A DNA stretch of 64,000 nucleotides from Phoronis australis (Eukaryota > Animalia > Phoronida). The notes below the pieces were generated by a model that was given only the letters and a program-made list of their open reading frames with translations, searched no databases and was not told where the DNA came from. The translations under genes and the position numbers were made by a program. This document shows, one piece after another, positions 336-61,900 of the stretch (position 1 is its first letter; the number at the start of each line of letters is the position of its first letter). The stretch is taken from assembly GCA_002633005.1 (NCBI GenBank), contig NMRA01000162.1, positions 300,440-364,439 on the forward strand, written 5' to 3'.

Positions 336-488
336 CGGATAGGAGCAGCCTATGTGGTTGGTAATTGTCTACAGGGAACTGGTGAACATAATGTTTGGTC
401 ATGTTTGTGTGTTGGACTAAAGAGGTCACTGATGGTTTTGTTTTGAGCAACCTGGTGACCATTTGACGAAGCTCCGTTTTACTTCTAG

Positions 489-653
489 GTACTTCCTGCG
501 AGTGACGATAGTGAAACGACTCAGTGACCTAGTGAAGGAAATGGACGTAGCTGTACACACGCTCTCGTCGTACCCAGAGATGAACAACAGCATAAAGATG
601 GAGGTTGGCATTGAGGACTGTTTGCATATAGAGTTTGAATACAACAAGTCCAA
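489..653 (+). CDS. VPS26: VPS26 retromer subunit, internal coding exon (165 nt); upstream exons lie outside the window
   Basis: ttctag acceptor, gtgagt donor; encodes YFLRVTIVKRLSDLVKEMDVAVHTLSSYPEMNNSIKMEVGIEDCLHIEFEYNKS, hallmark VPS26 sequence. Confidence 0.97.
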
Positions 654-1126
654 GTGAGTGCAGGCCTATGGTCTCTGTGTGTGTGTTATCATCTTGTTAG
701 CTGTGGTGGATCACCATTCTGAAAGGTTGAGATGTTCTTCAATGTTGAGTCACAGAAAGATGTACTTTGGGATGCTCAACGATTAATTTTTCCCAGCAGT
801 CGCAGTTAGTTGTTAAAATTGAACCACTGAATCGGATGCAAATTTGGAAGCTCTATATGCTGTGACTCTTTTTTGTGGGAGAGTACTTCAGTATTCAAAG
901 TACCTTTGTCTTAAGTTTCACGTAAACTGAGACATTTTACCTCGGTCTGTACAAGTTAGAGCTGTAGAAAACTTTTTGATTAATGTTAATACATTGTGGT
1001 GTAATTTAGATATCTTAACTTGCTTACATCAGTCTGAGTAGTTAAGCTACCGCCTGGCGGGTTATTTCTGGCACTGTCTGCATAGTGACGGAACTGCCCC
1101 ATCTTGCTTATGATATCCGCCACTAG

Positions 1127-1233
1127 GTACCACCTGACCGACGTTATCGTGGGTAAAATCTACTTCCTGCTGGTCCGCATCAAGGTCCAGTTCATGGAGT
1201 TGGCCATTGTCAAGCGCGAGATCACTGGATCAG
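1127..1233 (+). CDS. VPS26: VPS26 alternative exon a (107 nt, mutually exclusive with 1812-1918)
   Basis: cactag acceptor, gtagtc donor; YHLTDVIVGKIYFLLVRIKVQFMELAIVKREITGS; phase 2 in and phase 1 out fit both flanking exons. Confidence 0.88.
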
Positions 1234-1811
1234 GTAGTCACTCGTCTCCTGTGTGGGGGCGTTCTTTAGTTCAGTCTTTGTCCCCCGTTGCTCACTTTTG
1301 TTGTTGTCGCAGCCGTTGTACGCATCGCCTTCACTGGGTCGCCATCACTTTGTTGAGAAGCAAACATAGCTGGAAACATGGCTGCTTTTAGTATTTCCTA
1401 CATCTCTGGCAGCAATCTGGTATTATCCAGGCATTGCGATTAGTTAAGGATGATACTACTGTAAACTGTACGTAAAAATTTCCAAGATTCAGCAATCGTG
1501 GCGTAATCATAGGCGCAGAGTTTCAAAAACAACTTTGCTGTCTCTGTTTCAGTGTCAGAGGACTGGTTTTGCCCCTGCAAGTAATTTTCCTCGTATGCCA
1601 GTATTTTTCCATGACGTGCCGTTTCTCTGCCATGTTTGCTCTTTGTCTCAATAGTTGCGACTCGCGTCGGCATTATTTCTGCCTAGCTACCAGTTTAATT
1701 TAGCTCACACAGACCTGCTGTCGGTTAGCTATCATCCGCGTCTCATCCGGGTTACTCAGTTCCTCCGTACTTCTTCAGTGGATTACGTTTGCATGTGTTT
1801 ATGTTGTGTAG

Positions 1812-1918
1812 GTATCATTTGAGGGACGTCATAGTGGGCAAGATCTACTTCCTGCTAGTGAGAATCAAGATCAAACACATGGAGGTGCAGATCATAAAAA
1901 GGGAAAGCACAGGCTCAG
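1812..1918 (+). CDS. VPS26: VPS26 alternative exon b (107 nt, mutually exclusive with 1127-1233)
   Basis: gtgtag acceptor, gtagtt donor; YHLRDVIVGKIYFLLVRIKIKHMEVQIIKRESTGS; same length and phases as exon a. Confidence 0.93.
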
Positions 1919-3543
1919 GTAGTTGTCGCCTCACTCACCGCTCTGTACTTTTGCTCTTTACAACCAGGGCACTTGATCACCTGAGGGGAAGGATGTCTGT
2001 GTCTTCTTGAAGGGATTTTTTTGATCGAACGGAAATTTCTCATCTCATGCCTACGAGCGTATTAGAAAACCTAAAAAGCATATTGATGTTATCCAAATAG
2101 ATGTCCTGAGGTATTCTTCCACAAATGTTCAGTGCTCTACTGTGAAACGTCTGCTGGTTTTGGTGGTTAGCGCTGCCTGAAATCCGATTCCTAGCATATG
2201 TTACCTTATGGAATGTAGTAATTATTATAACCTCAGTTGAAATTTGCTTATGTCTCATTAACCAACTTCTTTAGTTCTCAGATTTATTTGAATGTTTTTC
2301 CTTTCTGAAATAGCACAGGTCGGTGATACTTTCACAGTGTTCAAGAAGATTCCTTTTAATTAGCTCTGTCTCTATGTAGATGAATACTCCTTGCTGTGGT
2401 CTGTAAAACCGGGGGTGGGATGGTATAAATTTTTAGGAATTCTATTTGATTCTCAATAGGAGGTATTTGATTATTTTCAATAATTATTTATTCTGACTCA
2501 TTTGTCAAATTAATTCATTTCTTTCAAATGCAAGTAGTTAACTTACCATTAGCGCCAATTTTAGCAACAAATTTGTTAAATATGATAAAATGTCCTCTAA
2601 TGGAGCTGTTTGCTTGTTTAGTATCTCAATAATGCTCTTCAAAAGATACAAAAATGCCGCACCCAACAGCGAAAATTAGAATTGAATCGAAACAGGCCTT
2701 GGCATATTAATATCGAAATCAGTTGCTCCGGCCACATTTCGATTAGATTGCAATTTGATTATTATAATGTTCTCACCCTTATGTAATACCTGAACTAATG
2801 TTAAATGAAATGAAACCAAATTTCCGGGAATTCACATAATGTAGGTGAACATAATGGGAAGCTACCTTGGAGAATGGATCAGCTCAAAACTTGTAAACGC
2901 CCATAGTATTGCCCACCCCTACTTCACACTTGAAATGCCCAAACTACAAATTGGTGCTTTAGTTTGTCTTTAATAACCTTTCCTTTAGCTCTTGATTTCA
3001 AGCTTGCTCGTACAGTGTCTGTTCTTAAAATACTTCTCACTGCTATCTGGCTTCTTCACAAAGTCGTCATCTGTTACTGGTTACCATCTTCGGTCAAAAA
3101 ACTAACTTTGTTTAGACTACTGGTCTCGGCTTGTTATTTCGAAGGGATTTTGAGCTTGCTTGGGACTGGTGGATCATTACTACTTAAGACCAGGCTCAGT
3201 CTGTTGGCTTGATTCAGACACCAGATGGAGTACTCATTGGTTTGTTGCACAAAACCTTGAGATGGGACCAGCTATCTTGATCGAGTCTGTTCTCTAGCAA
3301 TGTGTATCAAAACTACCAGTTCGTCCTATGCGTAGAAATCCATTCTAAAATACAGAACAAGTTGAGGCCGATTTTCAACCGTTAATTTTTTAATAGTTTT
3401 TTTAAAATTTACTTAAAAGATTCATTCAAACAAAGATGTGATGCTAAAGCACGCGTTTACCTTGTTCTACTGGAATTGCTAAAGTAGATTGTGACTCATA
3501 TGTTTCGCATGATAACGGGGTGTGCATTGTTGTTATATTTCAG

Positions 3544-3612
3544 GGCCGAATACCTTCAATGAAAATGAAACGATTGCAAAATATGAAATCATGGACGGTG
3601 CCCCAGTCAGAG
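3544..3612 (+). CDS. VPS26: VPS26 coding exon (69 nt)
   Basis: tttcag acceptor, gtgagt donor; (G)PNTFNENETIAKYEIMDGAPVR. Confidence 0.96.
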
Positions 3613-4647
3613 GTGAGTATTTCTTTTTACAAAGTGTTTGTATTGCATTTTTAATTTTAAATTAATGTAAGGTTGCCATAATTAATGTGATATTAAGATT
3701 GACCTGATTGGAACTCTTAGTCAACTCTTAGTCAGGCAGATGATGACTGCTCGACTTGTTGCATAGTTGTGTGCTGGATTTCATCGGTGATGTCACGTAA
3801 CCACACATCGTATTGCCGACAGAGTTGTGCAATTCGTGCTGTTCAGCCTCGGTGTTTTTTTGTACGAATGTTCGTTAAGTACCATTTCCCTGGACTGTTG
3901 AAACCAAGAAATTTCCGACATCACGATCTGATCTAGTATCATAATGCTGTGGTAGTAAGCGGGTCAGAGCTTACAGTCACACAAAGGAATCAGCTGGTGA
4001 ATGAAAGTCAACTGTTTTCCCTGTCCTAAGTTTTTCTGGTAATTATTGTATTTCATACAAAACACATTCTTCTTTTCGACATTAGTTGAGCATCATTTGA
4101 GATAGTATTTTTAAATATCATTTAGTGTCAGGCGCTCTGTTCACAACAATAATTGCTGGATTACGTGACCTTATCAGATGAACGTAGACAATGAGAGAGC
4201 TGGAGTATATAAACATTGGTTTGCTAACTTTCTTCCTTTGCCTCGCTGTCAAAACTGATATAATGACATGGCTGTATCCCGACTAGCAAGTCGGTGAAAT
4301 CAGTGTAGTCGTCCCACAGCGTATGTACGTAAAGTTGTTTAATAGTGCTATACTTGCGAATAAAACCTAGCAAACAACAGGGCTTCGAAAGAATTGACGG
4401 TCTTTATAAATTGACTTGCCGTGAGTATAGTCTCAAGGCACAACCGACTGCCACTTCCTGCTAACCTAGAAATCACTTGAGACCACGTTTTTAGTGAGAA
4501 GTAGTCTAAATCAAGAGTTCACTTCTTGCATGGAACACCGGTTTATAACACCTTTGTCAATATGGGTCTTTTTGTTTGGAGGTCTACAGCTCTGTTCTTG
4601 GAAATGTTTTTTATGCGTGCGTCTGATGTTTTTTTACTTTGATATAG

Positions 4648-4790
4648 GCGAGTCGATACCGATACGGTTGTTCCTGAGTGGATACGAGTTGACACCGACA
4701 ATGCGAGACATCAACAAGAAATTCTCAGTACGGTACTACCTAAACCTTGTTCTAGTGGATGAAGAAGAGCGGAGATACTTCAAGCAGCAG
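4648..4790 (+). CDS. VPS26: VPS26 coding exon (143 nt)
   Basis: atatag acceptor, gtgagt donor; (G)ESIPIRLFLSGYELTPTMRDINKKFSVRYYLNLVLVDEEERRYFKQQ. Confidence 0.97.
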
Positions 4791-5565
4791 GTGAGTGTCT
4801 CTGGAGGTGTTTCTAGTGGGCTGATGAAAACGACGCGACTTAAGATATGCTTCTTGAGCTGTATTGAAAATTTTTTTGTTTGAACATTGTCCTTTTAGTA
4901 GACCAGTGAAAATGCATTGGTGGAGATGTGTTTCTTGTGCTCTGTTGAGAATGTTTTGTGAGAGTGTGATTGTGCTTCTAGTGTTCTGGTTAGAATGCCT
5001 TGTGTGAACGTGGTGCTTCTGCTGCTCTGGTCATAGTGCCTCGTGTGAACATGGTGCTTCTGGTGCTGTGGTGGAAGTGCCTTAAACTTCACAAAGAGAG
5101 TCAGACTGTATAAAGTGGCACAGTACATGCTATTCAACTTACGATTAGTTGAAATCAAAACCAAATCTGGACGCGACGCTTAGCATAACACCAAATGAAA
5201 CCTGGAAATTTCCCAGGTTGCCAAATAGGAAGGGAGATCTCCAACGTCCTTAGCAACAACCTTAAATGAAATAAAAGATACGTGGAGCAAAAAAACGGTG
5301 AACTCTGCAAATGTGTGTCGGTGCATCCTAAATCAGGGTGATCTGCACATCTTTCCTCTACCTGTCTCATACATGGGCATTCCGATACTTGCTAAACGAT
5401 TCCGACTTGGTTAGTTTTCTTCCCGCAGTATTTTGAGTGCATGCTCGGATGTGTGAATAGCGACTTCCTGGCGACCTGGAATTTTTCCTACGTCGCCCAA
5501 CAATGTGATGCCGACAAATCGAGCCCTGCAACTACAGTACCCAGTCATATTAATCTCTGTTGTAG

Positions 5566-5709
5566 GAGATCACAGTATTTCGCAAGGCGGACAAAGCACG
5601 GCGGACACAAGGAGGTGGCAGAAAAATGGAGGAGCAGGAGGCAATGAAACGACACGAGCCGGACTTACTAGCAGGAAGTCAACAGGCTGATGGCAATGAG
5701 GAACAGTGA
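5566..5709 (+). CDS. VPS26: VPS26 last coding exon
   Basis: ttgtag acceptor, phase 0; EITVFRKADKARRTQGGGRKMEEQEAMKRHEPDLLAGSQQADGNEEQ-stop; the start matches the EI..xRK end of the VPS26 domain. Confidence 0.9.
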   Translation, partial: EITVFRKADKARRTQGGGRKMEEQEAMKRHEPDLLAGSQQADGNEEQ

Positions 5710-8573
5710 GGCCTGCTTGCCTGTCAATCACGCACGTTACATTGCGTTGTCTATGGCAAAAGTGAAACCGTGGTTGAGTTGTTGTTGACGATAATCAGAC
5801 GACAGGACAGCTTCAGTGTGTGGGAATAGAGAAACTTTGTCGGAGAGAAATGCAAACTGATTGGTCGACTCCGGTTTAATGAATTTTTGCTGCATTCATC
5901 TTTTTTATGGATCATATATTTTCATCAGTCATCCCATTTGGATGTTAATGGTCGAGGAATAGCTTATGAAGAGACAGTTGCTGTGGCTTCATAGTTTTCC
6001 TGTTTAACTTGATCTTGCCTTCTTGAAAAAAAATGATATTTAAAATGTCCTCCCGATGTTGCAGTACTGACTTTCAGATGGGGGATTGAATCTTTCAGTT
6101 TGCGTCAAAAATTTAGCTGCCGTCTGTTGGTCATTCTGTGTACTAAGTGTGGCGTACTGATCCAAGAATGATGCAATTTCATTGCGACAATACTCTGCTA
6201 AGGTCACTGTTAAGTTTCCTGTCCAGTTCGTTCCTCCTACATTATTTTAAATTGATTAGTTATAACCCTCATGCAGAATGTTCAGGAGTGCCGAATCAGT
6301 CTCTGAAACAATTGAAATAAGTGCTTGCCATGTTTTTTGCTCCTGAGATGTAACAGGGAAGTGTTGCTTTCGCTTCATCTGCTTGTCTTGTTCATACTGC
6401 CGTTTCAAGAACTGTATCTGACGGTGAACTGGATACGAACACCACTCATTGACAAGTTCTCTTTTATGTTAGTAAACGATAAATTTCTTGGTAGTGTTGT
6501 TCATTGTCAGCATGTTCTATAGCCAATGATGTCAAAAGAATGCGTCTCAATCACATCTTTTCTCAATGTCTGCTGCTGTTCACAATTATTGCCATTTTCA
6601 CAAGTTTGTAAATCGCAGTCTTTTCAGACAACCCCTTCCCGTGCCCTGAAAGTGTTAAAATGTTGGCATTTTTTAAGCCAGTATTCATTTACGTAAACTG
6701 CTAGGTAGGTTTTATATTTTCTTGTTGGTGTTCATCCATATAACGACATTTTTCTGTTGAAAAATCAGTACATAAAGCATTGAATGCTTGTCTTTTCACT
6801 ATAATTTCTATGTTTTCAAAAGCATGCGCCATATTACTGACCCCTCCCTAAATTGTATGTTTTATCGACTGGTGGTAATAGCGATAATTTTGTTGTTTTA
6901 GCTGGACATGATAACTCGTACGTTATTTCTCGATTTGCTCCTTTGCAGTATATCTGTATGTTGTGGAGCAATCCACTTTCTTTGAGTGAATTTTTAATAA
7001 TGGACACGTTCCAGAGTGTCCCAATGCCATTGGACTGGAACGGAGGATTTACAAGTTGAGCGGGTGTACTGCAAAGTTGTATTGTTGGCAGTCATTTCCT
7101 ATTGACAGTCAGTAAATGCTTTTCGCCGATGCTGCTTGCAGAGATCGGAGACCTGCTATTAGATTAAGTATTTCTTTTCCAACTACGGAGCATACTTTAT
7201 GAAACTGATTCTAACTATTGTGTATTTAAAGTTGCATAAATGATTGTAAATAAGTTGTACAGAATTCAACATTTAGTTGTTAATCGTGTTGTTGAGAGCA
7301 CATCATCAAGTCTCCATGCTTCAGGTGGAAGGTTAAACATGTGCTTACAGTATATTGCTATATTTCAGTTATCTTAGGTATAGTTATAAATCACGGTTAA
7401 CCCGTGGTAGTGTAGAACCAGTTTGATGTAGGAAAATCTAATCATGTTTTTATTACTTGTTATTAGTCTAAAAAGTCCTACTAAAGTAGAGGCGATTCTC
7501 CGTCTATGATGACCCATTCCACAGAGTTGCTGATGCGCTGGTCATTACTCTTGGTTGCTGGTAGCTCTCATGTTCTGCTCGATGTTGTGAGTGCACTCGG
7601 CCTAGTCAATATTTTTTGTTGCACAGTTTGTGCAAGCATAACGTTGTTTCATTTTAGTAAATCTTTGATGCAAACAAGCACATGCCCTCAATAAACTGGG
7701 ATGGTAATGGTCAACCATACTCCTTCAGTAGTTTGACAAGCTTAGTTCGATTTGCTAGTAGAGTCTTCAAATAAGAAAAAAGTTAATTCAGCAGAGTTCT
7801 ATTCATTAAATGTTGTTTGACTGGTACAACCGTAGTATTTTATGTTTGTACATCTGAAGTGCTTGTGAAACAATTCTTCTTGTAGAAATACAACGAATTC
7901 ACATGCGACTCCTATCCCACAAACACCCACATATTTGGTGATCAACCATCTGTTTGGATGGTAAAAGAGGACCCTTTCTTTTGCCATTAGCGCCACCTAT
8001 TGAATATTGAGTCACCCACTGAAAACCCAGCATTATGTTGCTATGGAAATCTTGCTTGTTTTATGAAAATTTCTCTCTTCTGCCATATTGTCCTAAATTA
8101 GTGGGTTTTACCGAGTTTGATTTTTTGAAATCCCAAAAGGTAGCAAGAGAGGGCGACGTTCATACAGAGGGCTTTGTAGTTGTTGAAATTAACCATTATA
8201 CTCCATTGTAGTTAACATTTGAACAGAGGATGACATCGTTCATTATTGGAATTCAGTTGGGACTGGAAGTTGCATAATTTCAAGTTAATTGCCAGGTAAA
8301 CACTATGTAATACAGACAAAATCATGAGTTGTCTTAACACTGTTTGAACTTCGGTCAGAACTCGGCATGTTTTGTAAAACTTGTTTGTTGTAGCAATGTA
8401 TCACTGATCTTTACCTTGCAGACAGCTTTTCAAAGCTGTTTTTATTGAACATTTGGTGTTATTACGATAATTGTACAGCACTATGGAGCAATTGTGGAAA
8501 ATGTTGTAAATGATTTAATTATTATTATTATCTGTTATATTGATTATAGATTATTGATAAATAGAAAACATCA

Positions 8574-13935: not shown

Positions 13936-14360
13936 CTGCAACAAAAAAATCACAGCTTGAATAGAGAAAACCTTTGCTCCTCTGGTCACATGTTGCACAT
14001 TCTCTGTAAAATTACCAAACCAAAGCGTGATGCTCAAGAGCCAATCCTCATGAAAAGTTTATCTGACAAACAGAATGTTCATACAACATACTTGCTATGA
14101 TAATAACCTTACCACTAATCCCTCTTAATAGCAGTTTTTGAAATGACAAAAGTGAATTGATTGCATGAACAAACGTAAACAGCACAGAAAAGATTTCAGT
14201 ACTTACAGGTATCTAATGGATTAATCAGTATGACCTTAAACGTTTAATACTTCCATCTTCTGTCTCATGTCTGCCACTTGGGGAAGTCAAGGATTCAGGT
14301 GACGTTGGAAGACTCACAGTAGATGTGTGGTAGAAAGTGTACGTCTGTCGGTTAACTCAC

Positions 14361-14516
14361 CTTGTGAGCAACACCAATGGCAATGCAGCACTTCCTGCCC
14401 GGATGTACTATTTGGATTTCAAAGTAGTGACATCGACGACTTAACGGCACACTGGCCTGCGCTAGGCCGTGGTCTTTATCTTTGATCATGCTTCCCTGCC
14501 CACAGTACTCTAAATG
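14361..14516 (-). CDS. SPRYD3: SPRYD3-like exon (156 nt)
   Basis: ctacag acceptor, gtgagt donor; HLEYCGQGSMIKDKDHGLAQASVPLSRRCHYFEIQIVHPGRKCCIAIGVAHK. Confidence 0.92.
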
Positions 14517-14943
14517 CTGTAGCAAAAACAGACTGATGTAGGACAATTGGATGTCTCGATAATCATGCAAGAAGTTTAGACACGTATAGTAATTATCTTT
14601 CAACAATAACTTTGACAACAAAGGGTATTGACAAACAATCAGCAGTTGCATCAGCACCAACTAAATGTTACATTTTGGGCCAAGATCCAATGTCGAAAAC
14701 CTAAAATGAAATGCAAGCTGTCCAGCAAACAGCATAAGATTTTCTGGCCACACACAATAACTAAGCTAACAGCATCAAGATAAGAGTTGTTGAATAACGA
14801 ATCAAGATATTTGCTTTGCTTTTTCAAACTTTGGGTGGACTAGTCTACGCAAATTAGTGATAATAGCGGGTCCAATTTACAGTCCTCGAAATTCCTAAAA
14901 CTGCATCACGACCATTTTGTGTAATGTGCTCAAAAGAACCTAC

Positions 14944-15129
14944 CCCATCCTTGAGACGTATCTCACGCAGTCTGGCCCAGTCACTCAAAGTCGTCGGCAC
15001 CCTCGTGACATCCGTGTCAAGGCGAACAAACTCTGCTTCCAAGTCCACTCTGCATCGTTCCTTCTCACCGTGTAGTGATACAGCAGGAAATAGTCCGCCG
15101 AACGGAACTATCACCTCTGAATGGCCAAT
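14944..15129 (-). CDS. SPRYD3: SPRYD3-like exon (186 nt)
   Basis: ttgcag acceptor, gtaggt donor; IGHSEVIVPFGGLFPAVSLHGEKERCRVDL...DWARLREIRLKDG. Confidence 0.92.
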
Positions 15130-16383
15130 CTGCAATAAAACAGAACCAGTGATCTGATGGTGATTTGACAAACAGGCCCACACAATGGATCACTGATAGA
15201 AGAACTGATGTGTTGAGGAGCACCAATGTGAGAGTATAGAGAGCACACTAAGACTTCTAAACCAAGGACCTTTTTGGTGTGTCCAATTTCTGCAAAATCT
15301 GTAAGAAGCTAATATTGCCACGTATGCTAGCCTTATACTTTGACCCATGAGCCTATATTAGAAGCTGCACCTAAAATAAACTAATAGGCACATGCACCTT
15401 TTGAGTAAATGTAACACGCATAAAAGCGGTGCTTTGGATAAAGGTGCACCCTAATTGGTAAACCAAACCTTAAACATAGTTGGAAGTCCATACTCTGAAA
15501 TAATAGAATTTAGTGTCACAAATATTACACTTGAACTTCACATCAAATAAACTGCACATGTCAAAACTACAATTGTGTGACACATATTCATCTGCAGAAT
15601 ATGGCAAATATAACTTCATGTAAATCCCGCCCTTCGAAAAATCTCAATATTCACTTGAATGGTTTGCTTGTAACTCTGCCATTTACATTTGATATACCTA
15701 GCAATGAACTTGTGAAATAAAGCATTCATTTAACTCATTCACTGACATTCGGGTCACTACTACTTAAAATATGTCATTAGGCCAAAATCTCAGTGTACAA
15801 AATGGCAGAGGATTTGATTCGTTGTCTTTAGAGAAAGGCAAAACACAAAGCAAAACATAACCGCGTTATCATTTATATCACTCCCTAAATATCATTAGGG
15901 AATTTGATTTGGTACTTAGTACTTGTACAATCAGCAGGTATTCCCCCTTCTTTTTATTTATGTCAATTTCACAAATTAGAGAAAAAAGTTTCTATGGACC
16001 TTCACCACTGTTTGTGCATGCACCCCAATAAAAATTTTTAAAAATACTCTCAGTAATTTGGCGCTCAGAATGCATTGAAGATTCTTGCGAATGACACAGC
16101 CTCCCGTAATACAGTGTAGACCTACATATACGAGATATCAAAAGTCAGTTAACTCAACTTTAAGCACTTGTATTCATTTTTTCAGTTAGAAACTGTATTT
16201 TCACTAAATCAGATTTCCTGGGTGGTTTAAATCAAGGCAATGAAACATGCTTTTCCTTCAAAACTTTTTACGCATATTTTACACTACTGGTCTGGCTCAA
16301 ACATTAATCATGTGTCGCGAATATCAAATAAAAAGACAATATCTATAATGTTTGAAATATTTCAGTAATCATGTGAAGGTTAC

Positions 16384-39034: not shown

Positions 39035-40072
39035 AGGCGAAGGCAACCTTTTTCCATGTCATTTTGAGCTAAAATAAGGTTGTTTGGTTATCCTAGACAT
39101 ATTTTTCACTTAATTACAGCTTTTCGTAATTTTATTAATTATTCGTCCGCTTTTCCGGAAGTGACGTTTTAGGAGGCAAGCGCTTCCCGCCAATTTCTTT
39201 TCACATAGTCTGACTGGGAGAGCTGCCGAGTCAGTCATTGTTCTACCTCGGTTGTGTTAAGTTCCNNNNNNNNNNNNNNNNNNNNNNNNNNNNNNNNNNN
39301 NNNNNNNNNNNNNNNNNNNNNNNNNNNNNNNNNNNNNNNNNNNNNNNNNNNNNNNNNNNNNNNNNNNNNNNNNNNNNNNNNNNNNNNNNNNNNNNNNNNN
39401 NNNNNNNNNNNNNNNNNNNNNNNNNNNNNNNNNNNNNNNNNNNNNNNNNNNNNNNNNNNNNNNNNNNNNNNNNNNNNNNNNNNNNNNNNNNNNNNNNNNN
39501 NNNNNNNNNNNNNNNNNNNNNNNNNNNNNNNNNNNNNNNNNNNNNNNNNNNNNNNNNNNNNNNNNNNNNNNNNNNNNNNNNNNNNNNNNNNNNNNNNNNN
39601 NNNNNNNNNGTACTCGGGCTCAAACATGTACCCACCCACTGAATGTCCGTGAAAAAATTCCTCGTCACCACTGCTGTGAACAAGGTCTCCGTCACTCACA
39701 CTACTGTCACTGTGATACGGGTCACCGACTCCAGCCATTTTCAGCTTACAACACACTAAACAATCCCTAAATCCAACGCAGTTGAGTTCTCTACTAACCT
39801 ATCTTGCCGCAGAATACTCGCCGATGGAAAGTGGTGGCGACAATTGGTGAAAAATAGCACAAAACAAAAGTAGAATAGAACAGATTCGCACAGTAATCTC
39901 AATGCAAAACCAAGTGGCGGGAAGCGCTTGCCTCCTAAAACGTCACTTCCGGAAAAGCGGACGAGTAATTAATAAAATTACGAAAAGCTGTAATTAAGTG
40001 AAAAATATGTCTACGATAACCAACCAACCTTATTTTAGCTCAAAATGACATGGAAAAAGGTTGCCTTCGCCT
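39035..40072. mobile_element. Kolobok-type DNA transposon, copy 1 (interior in assembly gap 39266-39609)
   Basis: TTAA TSDs at 39031-34 and 40073-76, AGG...CCT ends, ~158-bp near-perfect TIRs; nearly identical to 54595-56285. Confidence 0.9.
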
Positions 40073-54859: not shown

Positions 54860-55668
54860 ATGCCACACTGTTGCTGCGTACCAGGATGTACTAACTATCG
54901 GCTCACGCGCGCTTTGGGAGAACCTTTGCATCGCTTTCCGATGGATGACACACTTCGCCGTACTTGGCTCGTTCGTGTGAAGAACGCAGCGTTACCCGTC
55001 CACGCAACGTACAAAGCAGTGAAGAATTACAGTGTGTGGCAAGCACTTTCTGCCGTCCGATTACGAAAGGGATTTGTACGCTGAACTGATGAAGGTCCCT
55101 GCGAAACAACGTCTGAAGAAGGATGCCATTCCGTCTGTGTTGATTCCCGGCAGTGCACCGTCGCCACCCCCGAGAAGTGCGTTTTTGAAGCGAGAAGCCT
55201 CGCGAGCTGTGGCCAGTGCAGTGACTGGAGCCATTGGAGGCACTCCATCTACTGTCACCCGTGCCTCCGAACGTACCCCGGAGCGTGCAATTCCTGGAAC
55301 CAGTAGTGATTCGCCCTGTGCTGTTTTCTCCACCCCAGAGCCTCTAAGCAGCCCTGCAGCGATATTGAGTAGTGGGAGTGATAACAGGCTCAGTTCGACA
55401 CCCAGTGAAGAGGACAGTTCGTCGTCCAGTGAACATATCGGTGAGCCAAACTTTGATAAGTTTATTCTGGACTTGTCTAAAGTGTTGGAGCTATTTAGAA
55501 GGTGCCAGGTGTGTGGCGAGGGAGTCACACGACACAATGTAAGCAGTTTGGGTGCTCAGTTCACCATCCAGTGGGAGTGTGTCGCGGGAAACTATGGCAA
55601 GTAGGACAGTTGTTCCTGTGTCCGCAGTATGCCGGAGGTCCACTTAACCATGTCCAGTAGTAGCTTGG
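54860..55668 (+). pseudogene. THAP-domain transposase N-terminus (frameshifted, catalytic part deleted)
   Basis: MPHCCCVPGC..LHRFP..RRTW..VCGKHF..RLKKDAIPS is a C2CH THAP domain; frameshift in the gtgtgtg run at ~55032; later CQVC..C motif and a stop at 55602-04. Confidence 0.85.
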
Positions 55669-55951
55669 CCTCGTCGAACTCTGAACAGCACAAGCATTCC
55701 ATTGAGGTAGGCATAACAACGCACACAGTGCATTTGCACCAAGATGTGCCACCACGTCTGTCCTCAGTAGCCGCCTCGTTTCTCTCAACAGCTGCCTGTG
55801 CCTGTGCGTACTCTGCCTCGTTATACTCGGGCTCAAACATGTACCCACTCACTGAATGTCCGTGAAAAAATTCCTCGTCACCACTGCTGTGAACAAGGTC
55901 TCCGTCACTCACACTACTGTCACTGTGATACGGGTCACCGACTCCAGCCAT
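55668..55951 (-). pseudogene. Kolobok accessory ORF N-terminus, P2X7 cytoplasmic-ballast-like Cys cluster (truncated)
   Basis: MAGVGD...YMFEPEY...RRGGTSWCKCTVCVVMPTSMECLCCSE matches the WCxCxxC...ExxCC pattern; the same start is present in copy 1 (39610-39738). Confidence 0.8.
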
Positions 55952-56478
55952 TTTCAGCTTACAACACACTAAACAATCCCTAAGTCCAACGTAGTTGAGT
56001 TCTCTACTAACCTATCTTGCCGTAGAATACTCGCCGATGGAAAGTGGTGGCGACAATTGTTGAAAAACAGCACAAAACAAAAGTAGAACAGAACAGATTC
56101 GCACGGTAAAGTCAACGCAAAACCAAGTGGCGGGAAACGCTTGCCTCCTAAAACGTCACTTCCGGAGTAGCGGACGAGTAATTTATAAAATTACGAAATG
56201 CTGTAATTAAGTGGAAAATATGTCTAGGATTACCAACCAGCCTTATTTTAGCTCAAAATGACATGGAAAAAGGTTGCCTTTGCCGTTAATGTTGTTTTTG
56301 GAAGTCCATCAACCAGTGGAAACAACGCTGCTGCCGCACTCAGTTCCTCGCTGTATAAATGCCGCTCATGATCCTGATAAACCCACCGGCTCACTGACTT
56401 ACTCGTGCTGGACCCACAGACATGGTGCACGGACTCCATAACGATGCACTGTACAGTTTTTGGCAGCCTATGAGTTAT

Positions 56479-58388: not shown

Positions 58389-58765
58389 TGAGTTATCGCC
58401 GCCGACTACAGACTTGACGACAAATACGTCATATTTCCGTTTAGCTCTTATTGACAACTGAAAACCAGCGTCATATTGGTCCGAATGTATGCACTATATA
58501 CTCTAACTCATCGTAGGTGTAGTATTCAGAATTGGATCGTACATGTACGTAGGTCGGCAGGTCATCGCCCGAGGCTGACTTGTAAACAAACCGAAGACTA
58601 TCACAAGAGCGGTGAACCGGCATACATGTATTTTATGTGCGTTGGAGTAAGCATTGTGTATAAGTAAGCATTATGCTCATTGAATTTTATTACGCAGGTG
58701 CAAGGCTCCAGACACCACATCGCTGTCTCTCGGGAACCTAGCCAGGAACTTTAGGAAGCAACGAA

Positions 58766-58955
58766 ATGGAATCTAGCGTGAACAGTATTTACAGCTGGGT
58801 GGTGTGCTTTGCATCTTTCTTTGTCAACATGGTCTTGGACGGGACTCTCTTCTCATTTGGTCTTTTCTACGTCGAATTGCGGGAGTACTTTCAATGCAGC
58901 GAAAGCCAGGCGGCTTTGCCAGGCTCCTTGATGTACGGAATGGCATTCTTAGCAG
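58766..58955 (+). CDS. SLC16/monocarboxylate transporter (MFS), first coding exon (exon starts at 58698)
   Basis: MESSVNSIYSWVVCFASFFVNMVLDGTLFSFGLFYVELREYF..AALPGSLMYGMAFLA; in-frame stop upstream of the ATG; cag|gtaaaa donor. Confidence 0.92.
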
Positions 58956-61900
58956 GTAAAAGGCTTATAATTTGGTATCCGCGTTACTATACCTCTGGAA
59001 ACGTGTGCCCTTAGACAATTCTGATTAGCTGACATAAAACTGACCGACTTCGCGATGGGATATTGTATCTAAATAATGAAAATAGTGTATAACTGCATCA
59101 TCTAGCATGACCCCGCCAAAATCATAACAATACTAGGTTTTCTTAGAAACATCAATGGCCTACTGAGTAAGCCTTTTTGGGGGTTATCGTTCGACATGTG
59201 GATTTCCCTTGCAGAGTAAGTTCTCGCACTAATAAACTGTCTGACTTGCCTGGCTACTGTAGTGCCTACAATAATTACAATAGTATTTTTTCGCTTGGTT
59301 CTCGACTGTATCTCCGAAATACCTTGCCGGATCTTGAAATTTGGCAAGTGTATTTCTATGAACATGAAATCGCATGAACACGACTTTCAAACGCATATCA
59401 TTGTACGTCCTATTGGCAACTTTAGTTTTTTGTCGTGTGTATCTGTATCTTCGGAGCTCCTTGACGGATTTCATGAAATTTCACAAATATTTTTTTCTAT
59501 TCAAAAGACAAGGGATTTGACGTATTCTGCGCCACCTAGCGTCCATTTTTATTATGCGTACAAAACAAATTGTGGTCGCATATAGTCGTCCGGCGTCCGT
59601 TCTTATCTTTGTTTGACGAACCATGATGACGAAATCTGTTACAGAATTACACGGTGGGGATGTTCCGGCATCAGTCGATTTTCGAATAAATTATTATTTA
59701 GACTACAGTGGCTCTCCCTGCTGATTATTTTAGTTTTAGACATAAAATTCTTTGTCTATTAGTTTTCACCAGTGATGCTCAAGCGCTTGGTCAATATCTG
59801 CTGCGTTTATTTTCAGGAGGATCGACACTACATCACAACCTAACTGAATACTAGCTGTTAAGTTGTCTCTTCTTTCTATAGGACCTAACTGGTCCGAAGT
59901 TTCGTTGGCGTCGAAGACATCTCTTTCCACTTTCTATTTGAATGAATTAAACCAAGAAATGAAGGAATCATACAGCATTCTGGTTGTCTGCTCACATAGT
60001 CCATATTTTCAAACGCAAATATACTGTAGTCAGTCCAATCCGGCCTGACCAACAAGTGTGGTTGCTTCTGTTACGTTCATCAAGTCTATCAGCGATTCTG
60101 TCGCAAATCATTCCTCTGCAGACGTAATGCTGGTTGATGCCGTGTACTATAATTTCAGCACCACATTGTCTAAACAGTCTGTGAATATTTGCCTGCACGG
60201 GCTAGCTGTTGATTGTTTCACTATCCTCCTTTGTCCAATGGCGGATACGACAAATAAGTTGCCAGCCGAAGGGAACATGAGCAGACTAGAGGGAAAATCA
60301 AGGACCTTTCTTGACTCCAGAACCTTTCTTTCATTGCTATTTTCCACTTTTGCACGAATAAGAGTTTACTCAGCCGCCTTCTGTACTCTTTTCCTCTCCC
60401 TCTTACACCCAACCCGCCAGCATGAGGCCAGTCTTTACCCACAAAGAAGCAGACGTCGCAGACGTCTCACTCTACAACTACATGTGTATGCCGATTGCAA
60501 AAAACTTCCTGAGCATCAGAATCTTCAGTGATGTCACGGGCGGCCCTATGATTTTCTGGACAACGTAAAACAGAAAGGTGGCGCTGTGATTCCTCGGACA
60601 TCAATGGCATTATTCGACGGTTAAGCCTCAAAAAGTAATACTGTTTGACACTAAAGCTCCCAAAATATTTCCATTTGTTCCGATCTATAACGACGGTCTC
60701 AAGGCGGCAATGAAACCAATTGAAGGTCCATTGGTGGGGCACCGATTTTAGGTGTGCGTCTCACAATGTACTGTAACACCTTTGCAAATTTTTCATTACA
60801 TCTATTTGAACATGGGCAGGCGTTCATAGGAGGTGCACTATAAGGCGGGTTATGTAGGTATATGCATGGTTTTACTCTAGTGACTAATCAGTGTCACAAT
60901 AGGACCATCTTGTCAAAACGGTCTTTATTTGGTTAATATGATATGTCACTAGCTCAATAAAAATTTCAAATATTTTTGCGCTTGATTTGTTTTTGGTTAT
61001 CGTTGCAAACCCTTTTGGCGCTAGTTTTAGTCTTGTAAAGCTTTCTACGCCAATCCAATGAGTCCTTGGTCGAAGAATTATCTAATCGACCGACAATCAG
61101 GCGAAAACCGGGAAATTCCGCGCGGCGCAAGTGTCAAAAATCACCAATCGGTACCACGCCAGGAAAAATAAAGGTTTTGTGAGGCTAGATCGATCTTATC
61201 AATCGCTGCAGGGTCAGTCGCGAGAATAGGCGTGCCGTCGCTGAGCGATTTCCAACGGATGCTGAGCCCATACATGTATGTGTTCACGATTGTCTTTTAA
61301 ATGCTGTCTCAGTGTCGAGCTAGCATCGGCTTAGCCTCTTACAATGTCTTCGTCACGCATCAAACCGGGTCGATGGCTCGGGTGACGACCGTGTTGATTG
61401 TGATGTCCGGGTGATTTTAATCAACTCGAATGTAGCGGCCCATTTAATAGACACGAGATGCCGGTTGATAGTAGTTGACGTCGACCAACTCCGACTGGTA
61501 ATTGACCCTCAGATCACTGGACAACCACCGGTCAGTAGTACTGATGAAACAACATGGTACGGTACACAGTGTCTGTGCATGTGATGCCCACAATTAAACT
61601 GAAGACAGCTGATCCATTTTATCAAACTATTGCGACAACCTGCGATAGCGGATCTTACGACATTAAAGTACCGTATAATAGATTCCTAGAAACCATCAAT
61701 CGAATTCTGTGATTGAGGTTTTCAGAGTTCATACTGGGTCGTCGTCGATTAGTTAATGATTACCCCCACGGTGAATGACATACCGCATTATGTGAACGCA
61801 GTGAACCAATAAACGAGTTTGATCTTTGACCACCTGCCGAATCCCCTCAACCAAAATAGCATGTACTGACGGCCGATAGGAGCAGCGACCCATGACCACG

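Follow-up and report, generated by a model that had tools for sequence, protein, structure and literature searches.

Tandem duplicated exons that are used in a mutually exclusive manner constitute a known class of alternative exons, catalogued in human, fly and worm under the names MXE and MEHE (PMC9741552, PMC4494069). According to the available parts of these catalogues, they are adjacent homologues of equal length and phase, of ancient origin, that introduce conservative substitutions on a shared fold and contribute one copy per transcript. The pair of exons in the VPS26 gene of the phoronid Phoronis australis resembles them in all these respects, but it is apparently confined to spiralians; the main text of both catalogues, in its available form, holds no mention of VPS26. 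Some exclusive pairs are controlled by Rbfox proteins, as in FGFR2 (IIIb/IIIc), egl-15 (5A/5B) and alpha-actinin, and in FGFR2 a UGCAUG element lies upstream of the second exon (PMC2777236), which is the same layout as in the VPS26 pair. However, Rbfox binding and dependence have been demonstrated for those genes, whereas VPS26 displays the motif alone, in three loci and at 9-236 nt. A model of isoform separation, in which paralogues each keep one exon of an ancestral pair, has been described for CALU, MARVELD3 and U2AF1, whose paralogues nest inside the clade of one exon and share its diagnostic positions (PMC4494069). The same model was proposed for VPS26 in a preliminary description of this locus, but VPS26A lies outside the a group in the free exon tree and is devoid of the residues that define a. 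The vertebrate VPS26A and VPS26B proteins are likewise two variants that would assemble separate retromer cores, VPS26B being the vertebrate, brain-enriched paralogue (PMC8792909). They arose by gene duplication and, in the available text of PMC8635440, the functional difference documented for them resides in the C-terminal tails; the spliced isoforms, in contrast, have a common tail and diverge on the strand formed by residues 202-215. VPS26 is a core subunit of retromer, the coat through which the cell recycles membrane proteins, and the heterogeneity of this coat is studied via these vertebrate paralogues. A search by title or abstract opening, without most subscription journals, returned no paper on the VPS26 exon pair, and the a and b isoforms already stand uncommented in public annotations.

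The window, that is, the whole stretch of 64,000 nucleotides of P. australis DNA that was analysed, opens inside the VPS26 gene on the plus strand, the earlier exons being located upstream of the window start (Table 1). The tandem duplicated exon in this gene is real. Exons a and b are adjacent homologues of the same length (107 nt) and phase, both preceded by AG and followed by GT, with 75 of 107 bases identical, and adjacency, equal length and phase and canonical splice sites are likewise found in two metagenome loci (L013 and L016). At the protein level they differ at 9 of 35 residues, 8 of those 9 within the last 16, and DVIVGKIYFLLVRIK is the same in both copies with 7 of its 15 codons silently changed. 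Using boundaries fixed by reads, inclusion of either exon singly yields a frame of 208 amino acids, open from 490 up to its stop at 5707-5709. Joining a to b leads to a stop at codon 94 and omission of both to a stop at codon 61, the last junction being 308 and 193 nt further on, respectively. Transcripts with stops that far before the last junction are targets of nonsense-mediated decay, and the products with both or neither exon, all of which shift the frame, would be cleared in this way. The four VPS26 exon pieces scanned all pass the Pfam cut-off, a and b sharing the same profile positions, and by domain (PF03643) and arrestin-type fold the product is a retromer subunit of the VPS26A/B type. 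Between a and b, dN is 0.18 and pS is 0.76; since synonymous sites are saturated, the duplication is of old date and the two exons have been under constraint. Within each type across species dN ranges from 0.04 to 0.12 and pS from 0.6 to 0.96, as expected of purifying selection on both copies. The lengths, phase, frame shifts and selective constraint put forward in the preliminary description have thus been verified.

Table 1. Features of the VPS26 gene in the window (positions counted from the first nucleotide of the window)
Feature	Position	Strand	Remarks
Upstream constitutive VPS26 exon	489..653	+	Pfam Vps26 positions 122-175; reads end at 488; joint 653>1812
Exon a, minor alternative exon (F204, A208, V210 type)	1127..1233	+	AG..GT, 107 nt, Pfam Vps26 177-211
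Intron separating exons a and b, 578 nt	1234..1811	+	
TGCATG, candidate Rbfox site, 22 nt 5' of the exon b acceptor	1790..1795	+	
Exon b, major alternative exon (H204, Q208, I210 type)	1812..1918	+	Reads, both junctions
Downstream constitutive exon	3544..3612	+	Joints from a and b, onward to 4648
Constitutive exon	4648..4790	+	Joints 3612>4648, 4790>5566; Pfam Vps26 236-275
Last coding exon, up to the stop	5566..5709	+	3' UTR continues past 6000

At the expression level, about one fifth of each of four raw RNA runs (X1-X4) was aligned to window positions 400-6000, and splice joints were listed only when represented by at least 3 reads in a run. Both copies occur in spliced mRNA, b via both of its junctions and a via the downstream junction only. 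The joint into b (653>1812) is present in 29, 18 and 13 reads of X2, X3 and X4 (60 in total) and the joint out of b (1918>3544) in 19, 18 and 11 (48 in total); exon b is additionally contained in one X1 contig. The joint out of a (1233>3544) shows 0, 0 and 3 reads in the same runs, with three different starts, and these are not misplaced b reads, since the best of them has at least 54 letters on its shorter side. Exon b therefore accounts for 48 of the 51 downstream-junction reads and exon a for 3, so that b is the default and a the minor form in P. australis, the latter as seen by its downstream junction. Usage of a in X4 (3/14) differs from that in X2 and X3 together (0/37) by a Fisher test performed post hoc on runs that carry no tissue labels (p 0.017). 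X4 also displays sense-strand depth over 774-1708, and its a reads may hence stem from partly spliced pre-mRNA. Among joints reaching the floor of 3 reads per run in X2-X4, none corresponds to 653>1127, 1233>1812 or 653>3544; of the four junctions that the preliminary description had proposed to count, three have therefore been observed and the one entering exon a is absent from those listed. The missing a-b joined reads constitute weak evidence at the given depth, a being rare. In the oyster, where full-length isoforms have a Logan source, a is found on 12 contigs and b on 114. The proposal that one gene makes two VPS26 isoforms by splicing is in this way supported, in the form of a conserved mutually exclusive tandem pair.

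The distribution of the pair among animals has been addressed with protein and metagenome searches. A search with exon a matched an isoform of Babylonia that is distinguished from its sister isoform by six residues, each of them inside this exon, and two further protein searches, from which the best 120 of 778 and the best 120 of 772 matches were taken, were complemented with cluster look-ups. When isoforms of the same species and length were compared, 14 out of 14 pairs differed solely within this exon; they come from ten mollusc genera, namely Babylonia (two loci), Biomphalaria, Haliotis (two pairs), Patella, Crassostrea (two pairs), Ruditapes, Mytilus, Mya, Pecten and Mizuhopecten, and from the nemertean Lineus. 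Paired exons in other invertebrate VPS26 genes, anticipated in the preliminary description, are consequently a reality in molluscs and a nemertean. The gene models of Nucella and Tegillarca place a and then b within one protein, and a partial protein of the annelid Lamellibrachia includes an a-type exon. Among the proteins fetched, Capitella, Paralvinella, Owenia, Lingula and the cephalopods present the b type only. The strict a motif occurs in 29 of 563 fetched proteins, and all 23 of these that are named are spiralian (21 molluscs, 1 nemertean and 1 annelid) in a sample biased by the spiralian queries with which the searches were seeded. Of 400 metagenome loci, 80 were retained, and two of them (L013 and L016) carry a and then b in tandem. 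A single copy with both flanking exons is found in L048, L056, L060 (cnidarian-like), L062 (VPS26A-type) and L073 (insect-like), as well as in the clitellate-like L019, L021 and L061, all these group labels being inferred from likeness. Outgroups were assessed mainly from proteins rather than genomes, and the sequences fetched included none identified as amphioxus or tunicate. The constant region of VPS26 from the window groups with spiralians (89/80, a branch that is not starred), its nearest identity being 94% with oyster. Judged from this sequence comparison, the exon pair is ancient and probably spiralian.

Several departures from the common arrangement have been observed in these collections. 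In the clitellate-like loci L019, L021 and L061 (also in L027, L036, L041 and L044) and in protein P0033 only a b-type exon is present, a having apparently been lost, and the clitellate-like b exon has gained Q203, accompanied in the leech by I214, and has thereby come to resemble VPS26A by convergence. Land snails seemingly possess two VPS26 genes (P0117, P0142 and P0259 vs P0203 and P0406), one of which has a mosaic b-type exon that combines an a-like Y204 with Q208, and in Babylonia both exons are kept in both of the two VPS26 loci; these duplicates offer a natural test of how isoforms are partitioned after gene duplication. Snail isoforms P0047, P0211, P0213, P0254 and P0258 bear an insert of 6-7 residues directly after the alternative exon, which suggests an added microexon or a shifted splice site. 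Two candidate microexons after exon b of the window, found by pattern, were rejected as they lack read support. In L076 (5724-5904) a b-type exon is fused to the next exon, the downstream intron is missing and there is no second copy.

The relation of the pair to the vertebrate paralogues was approached by comparing 35 columns of distinct exon sequences, comprising 12 a, 12 b, 5 VPS26A, 4 VPS26B and 8 outgroup rows (sponge, cnidarians, hemichordate and arthropods), with residues in mollusc numbering (add 2 for VPS26A). Three sites separate a from b. Site 204 is Y or F in 12/12 a exons and H in 11/12 b exons and in every A, B and outgroup row; site 208 is A in a and in the outgroups, Q in 12/12 b and 5/5 A, and D in B; at site 210 all groups have I except a, which has V. 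VPS26A reads b-like at all three sites. The outgroups are H204-A208-I210 in 8/8 rows, a state that mixes features of a and b and would be expected of the exon before its duplication, and the named hemichordate and echinoderm proteins fetched are all of one H-A-I type with A208. The human VPS26A and VPS26B peptides quoted in the preliminary description agree with PDB chains, but the echoes drawn from them do not survive wider sampling. Of the matches between a and VPS26A, Q203 is present in only one of 12 a exons, the one of the window, and turns up among the b rows as well (2 of 12); I214 is found in 3 of 12 a exons, one b row and two outgroup rows, and the leech b exon contains both; L207 is common to 4 of 8 outgroup rows. 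In turn, where b matches VPS26B (K203, H204, I210, K211 and R212), the residues are those of the outgroups. Each of 200 bootstrap trees (100%) built from the exons unites the 12 a rows, so that exon a of the window stands with those of molluscs, a nemertean and an annelid, and VPS26A falls outside this group in the free tree; the tree is otherwise poorly resolved, with 2 of 38 branches starred, and b is not a single group. The resemblance to VPS26A and VPS26B is probably a matter of convergence and shared ancestral state rather than descent, and convergence of this kind is favoured because positions 204 and 208 of the strand are highly variable.

The preliminary description had offered the alternative that the pair was already present in the bilaterian ancestor, VPS26A having kept a and VPS26B having kept b. 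This process has been documented for 11 other events in the available text of PMC4494069, the VPS26A-type locus L062 has the same exon boundaries, and the bit scores lean in the predicted direction, as a of the window scores 46-47 on VPS26A vs 45.5 on wild-type VPS26B chains and b scores 55.8 on VPS26B vs 49. The AU test on 35 residues does not reject a with A (p 0.145). Nor does it reject a with b apart from the vertebrate genes (p 0.163), the very grouping on whose appearance the link to the paralogues had been said to fail; b with A has p 0.03 on a likelihood gap of only 0.13 and is not trusted either way. Since the AU test admits a with A and a with b alike, the judgement made here draws on the patterns at individual sites and on the spread among taxa rather than on a resolved tree, and these oppose the idea that each paralogue kept one ancestral exon. 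The diagnostic residues lack correspondence: Y/F204 or V210 is found in 0/5 A and 0/4 B rows, A208 is likewise missing from all five A rows, which carry the Q208 of b, and B has D208. The mean distance from a to A is 8.35 residues, larger than the 5.93 from b to A, and from mouse VPS26A the leech b exon differs at 5 residues and a of the window at 8. Moreover, the outgroups are neither of a nor of b type, so that several independent losses and reversions would be required, and the known functional difference between A and B sits in the tails mentioned above. Descent of the paralogues from the two exons is thus extremely improbable. A slightly less remote, though still very improbable, scenario is that the pair predates spiralians, the vertebrate genes deriving from the b copy and a having been lost in deuterostomes and ecdysozoans. 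The Q208 shared by every b and A row speaks for it, as does the free tree, which puts A beside the leech and clitellate-like b exons (93/84). Against it, no other site of the strand varies as much among eukaryotes as 208 (entropy 3.0 bits), A208 is the state of hemichordate and echinoderm proteins, and a position of A next to clitellates specifically cannot match species history and denotes convergence. Accordingly, the pair is likely to have arisen in an early spiralian, as an event separate from the duplication that generated vertebrate VPS26A and VPS26B.

It might also be argued that exon a, though genuine in relatives, is decaying or near-silent in P. australis, a leftover under relaxed selection. 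Its end branch of 0.16 is, together with that of Lamellibrachia, the longest among the a rows, it has private changes (T186, V202 and Q203), it contributes few of the downstream-junction reads, and the clitellate-like loci have lost a altogether. However, its frame and splice sites are intact and all a-defining residues are retained; dN to other a exons is 0.12 with pS saturated at 0.94-0.96; the sole variant listed within the exon is silent; and the uneven usage between X4 and the other runs, post hoc as it is, fits regulated use. A decaying exon a is for these reasons improbable, if less so than the two scenarios that involve the vertebrate genes. Taken as a whole, the evidence is probably best explained by an a/b pair used one at a time, shared with molluscs and a nemertean, that arose in an early spiralian and whose isoforms would differ in a surface patch.

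The structural consequences of the swap can be appreciated when the a isoform of the oyster is modelled (pLDDT 90.9), the model matching the crystal structures of VPS26A and VPS26B (TM 0.76-0.84, and about 0.5 to VPS26C). Strand 188-198 holds the invariant core of the exon, and the residues that vary are found on strand 202-215. In 93 homologues, positions 205, 207 and 209 are V, I, L, M or F in 97-100% of cases and E213 never changes; variability along the strand peaks at 204 and 208, which are mostly polar, and position 210 is hydrophobic in 84% and may thus be partly buried. From this alternation, 204, 208 and probably 210 and 214 are likely to face outward together, and the outward face would be aromatic-Ala-Val in a vs His-Gln-Ile in b. 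With the first encoded strand kept and the second varied, both isoforms would adopt the same fold and be told apart by a patch on the surface, which may tune a contact of retromer with a partner or cargo. The cargo pocket, with V168, F287 and strands 10 and 18, is outside this exon (bioRxiv 10.64898/2026.05.05.722683; PMC7990337, available text). The available portions of the VPS26 literature searched contain no description of a partner contacting strand 202-215, those of PMC2699828 and PMC6719449 hold nothing on the variable residues of the exon, and a residue search of a 2026 preprint gave nothing on 202-210.

Regarding how exclusive use may be enforced, the a-b intron measures 578-838 nt across the three loci (the window, L013 and L016), and steric exclusion was rejected as these introns are too long for it. 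With seeds of 8-10 nt, a weak test of docking and selector pairing, no perfect duplex of at least 8-10 nt was found between the a-b intron and the flanking introns. The hexamer TGCATG, one of five motifs tried, occurs in 3/3 loci within the stretch of 250 nt that ends the a-b intron (joint shuffle P 0.0012). Two of the 4 constitutive acceptors in the VPS26 gene likewise have it at a distance of no more than 250 nt, and so do 3 of 23 single-exon loci. The hexamer precedes the b acceptor by 22 nt in the window, by 186 nt in L013 and by 9, 77 and 236 nt in L016, and it is found upstream of exon a in 0/3 loci. It has been described that Fox-1 proteins repress an exon from upstream sites and promote it from downstream ones, also in exclusive pairs (PMC2777236, available text). 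An Rbfox-type factor binding UGCAUG just 5' of b could repress this exon and turn a on in Rbfox-rich tissue. That such a factor makes the switch to a is conceivable but rather doubtful, a lead from motif positions and not a result.

The spiralian phyla split in the early Cambrian or before. A two-state exon kept across three of these phyla points to a functional surface on the C-terminal lobe of VPS26, and the exon swap provides a clean change of six to eight residues with which this surface can be probed. A bolder and unlikely extension is that spiralians, in parallel with the gene duplication of vertebrates, doubled an exon and so gained a second retromer core, restricted to certain tissues and under the control of Rbfox in nerve or muscle, with strand 202-215 as a partner-binding site; if true, the conserved a/b surface would mark a VPS26 partner-binding site previously undescribed in the available parts of the literature searched. 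A note of caution is that short conserved exons converge on motifs typical of paralogues, as the leech exon b does on VPS26A.

Other elements were observed in the window. The VPS26 introns hold tandem repeats at 140-334 (a 45-nt unit, 4.3 copies, 98% match) and 4972-5072 (a 41-nt unit, 2.5 copies), and at about 3916-4001 and 4186-4233 reads come from both strands with many loose ends, as is typical of dispersed repeats. Exon-sized ORF pieces at 14352-15189 (minus strand) and 58742-59014 (plus strand) resemble by eye a SPRY-domain protein and a monocarboxylate-type transporter, respectively, with no Pfam match at E 0.01. Near-identical ORF stretches are located at 55023-56011 and 39235-39798. 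The copy at 55592-56011 matches P2RX7_C just below the cut-off (E 7.5e-5) and faces an ORF whose start, judged by eye and with no Pfam match, is THAP-like, a pairing of the kind present in Kolobok-type transposons.
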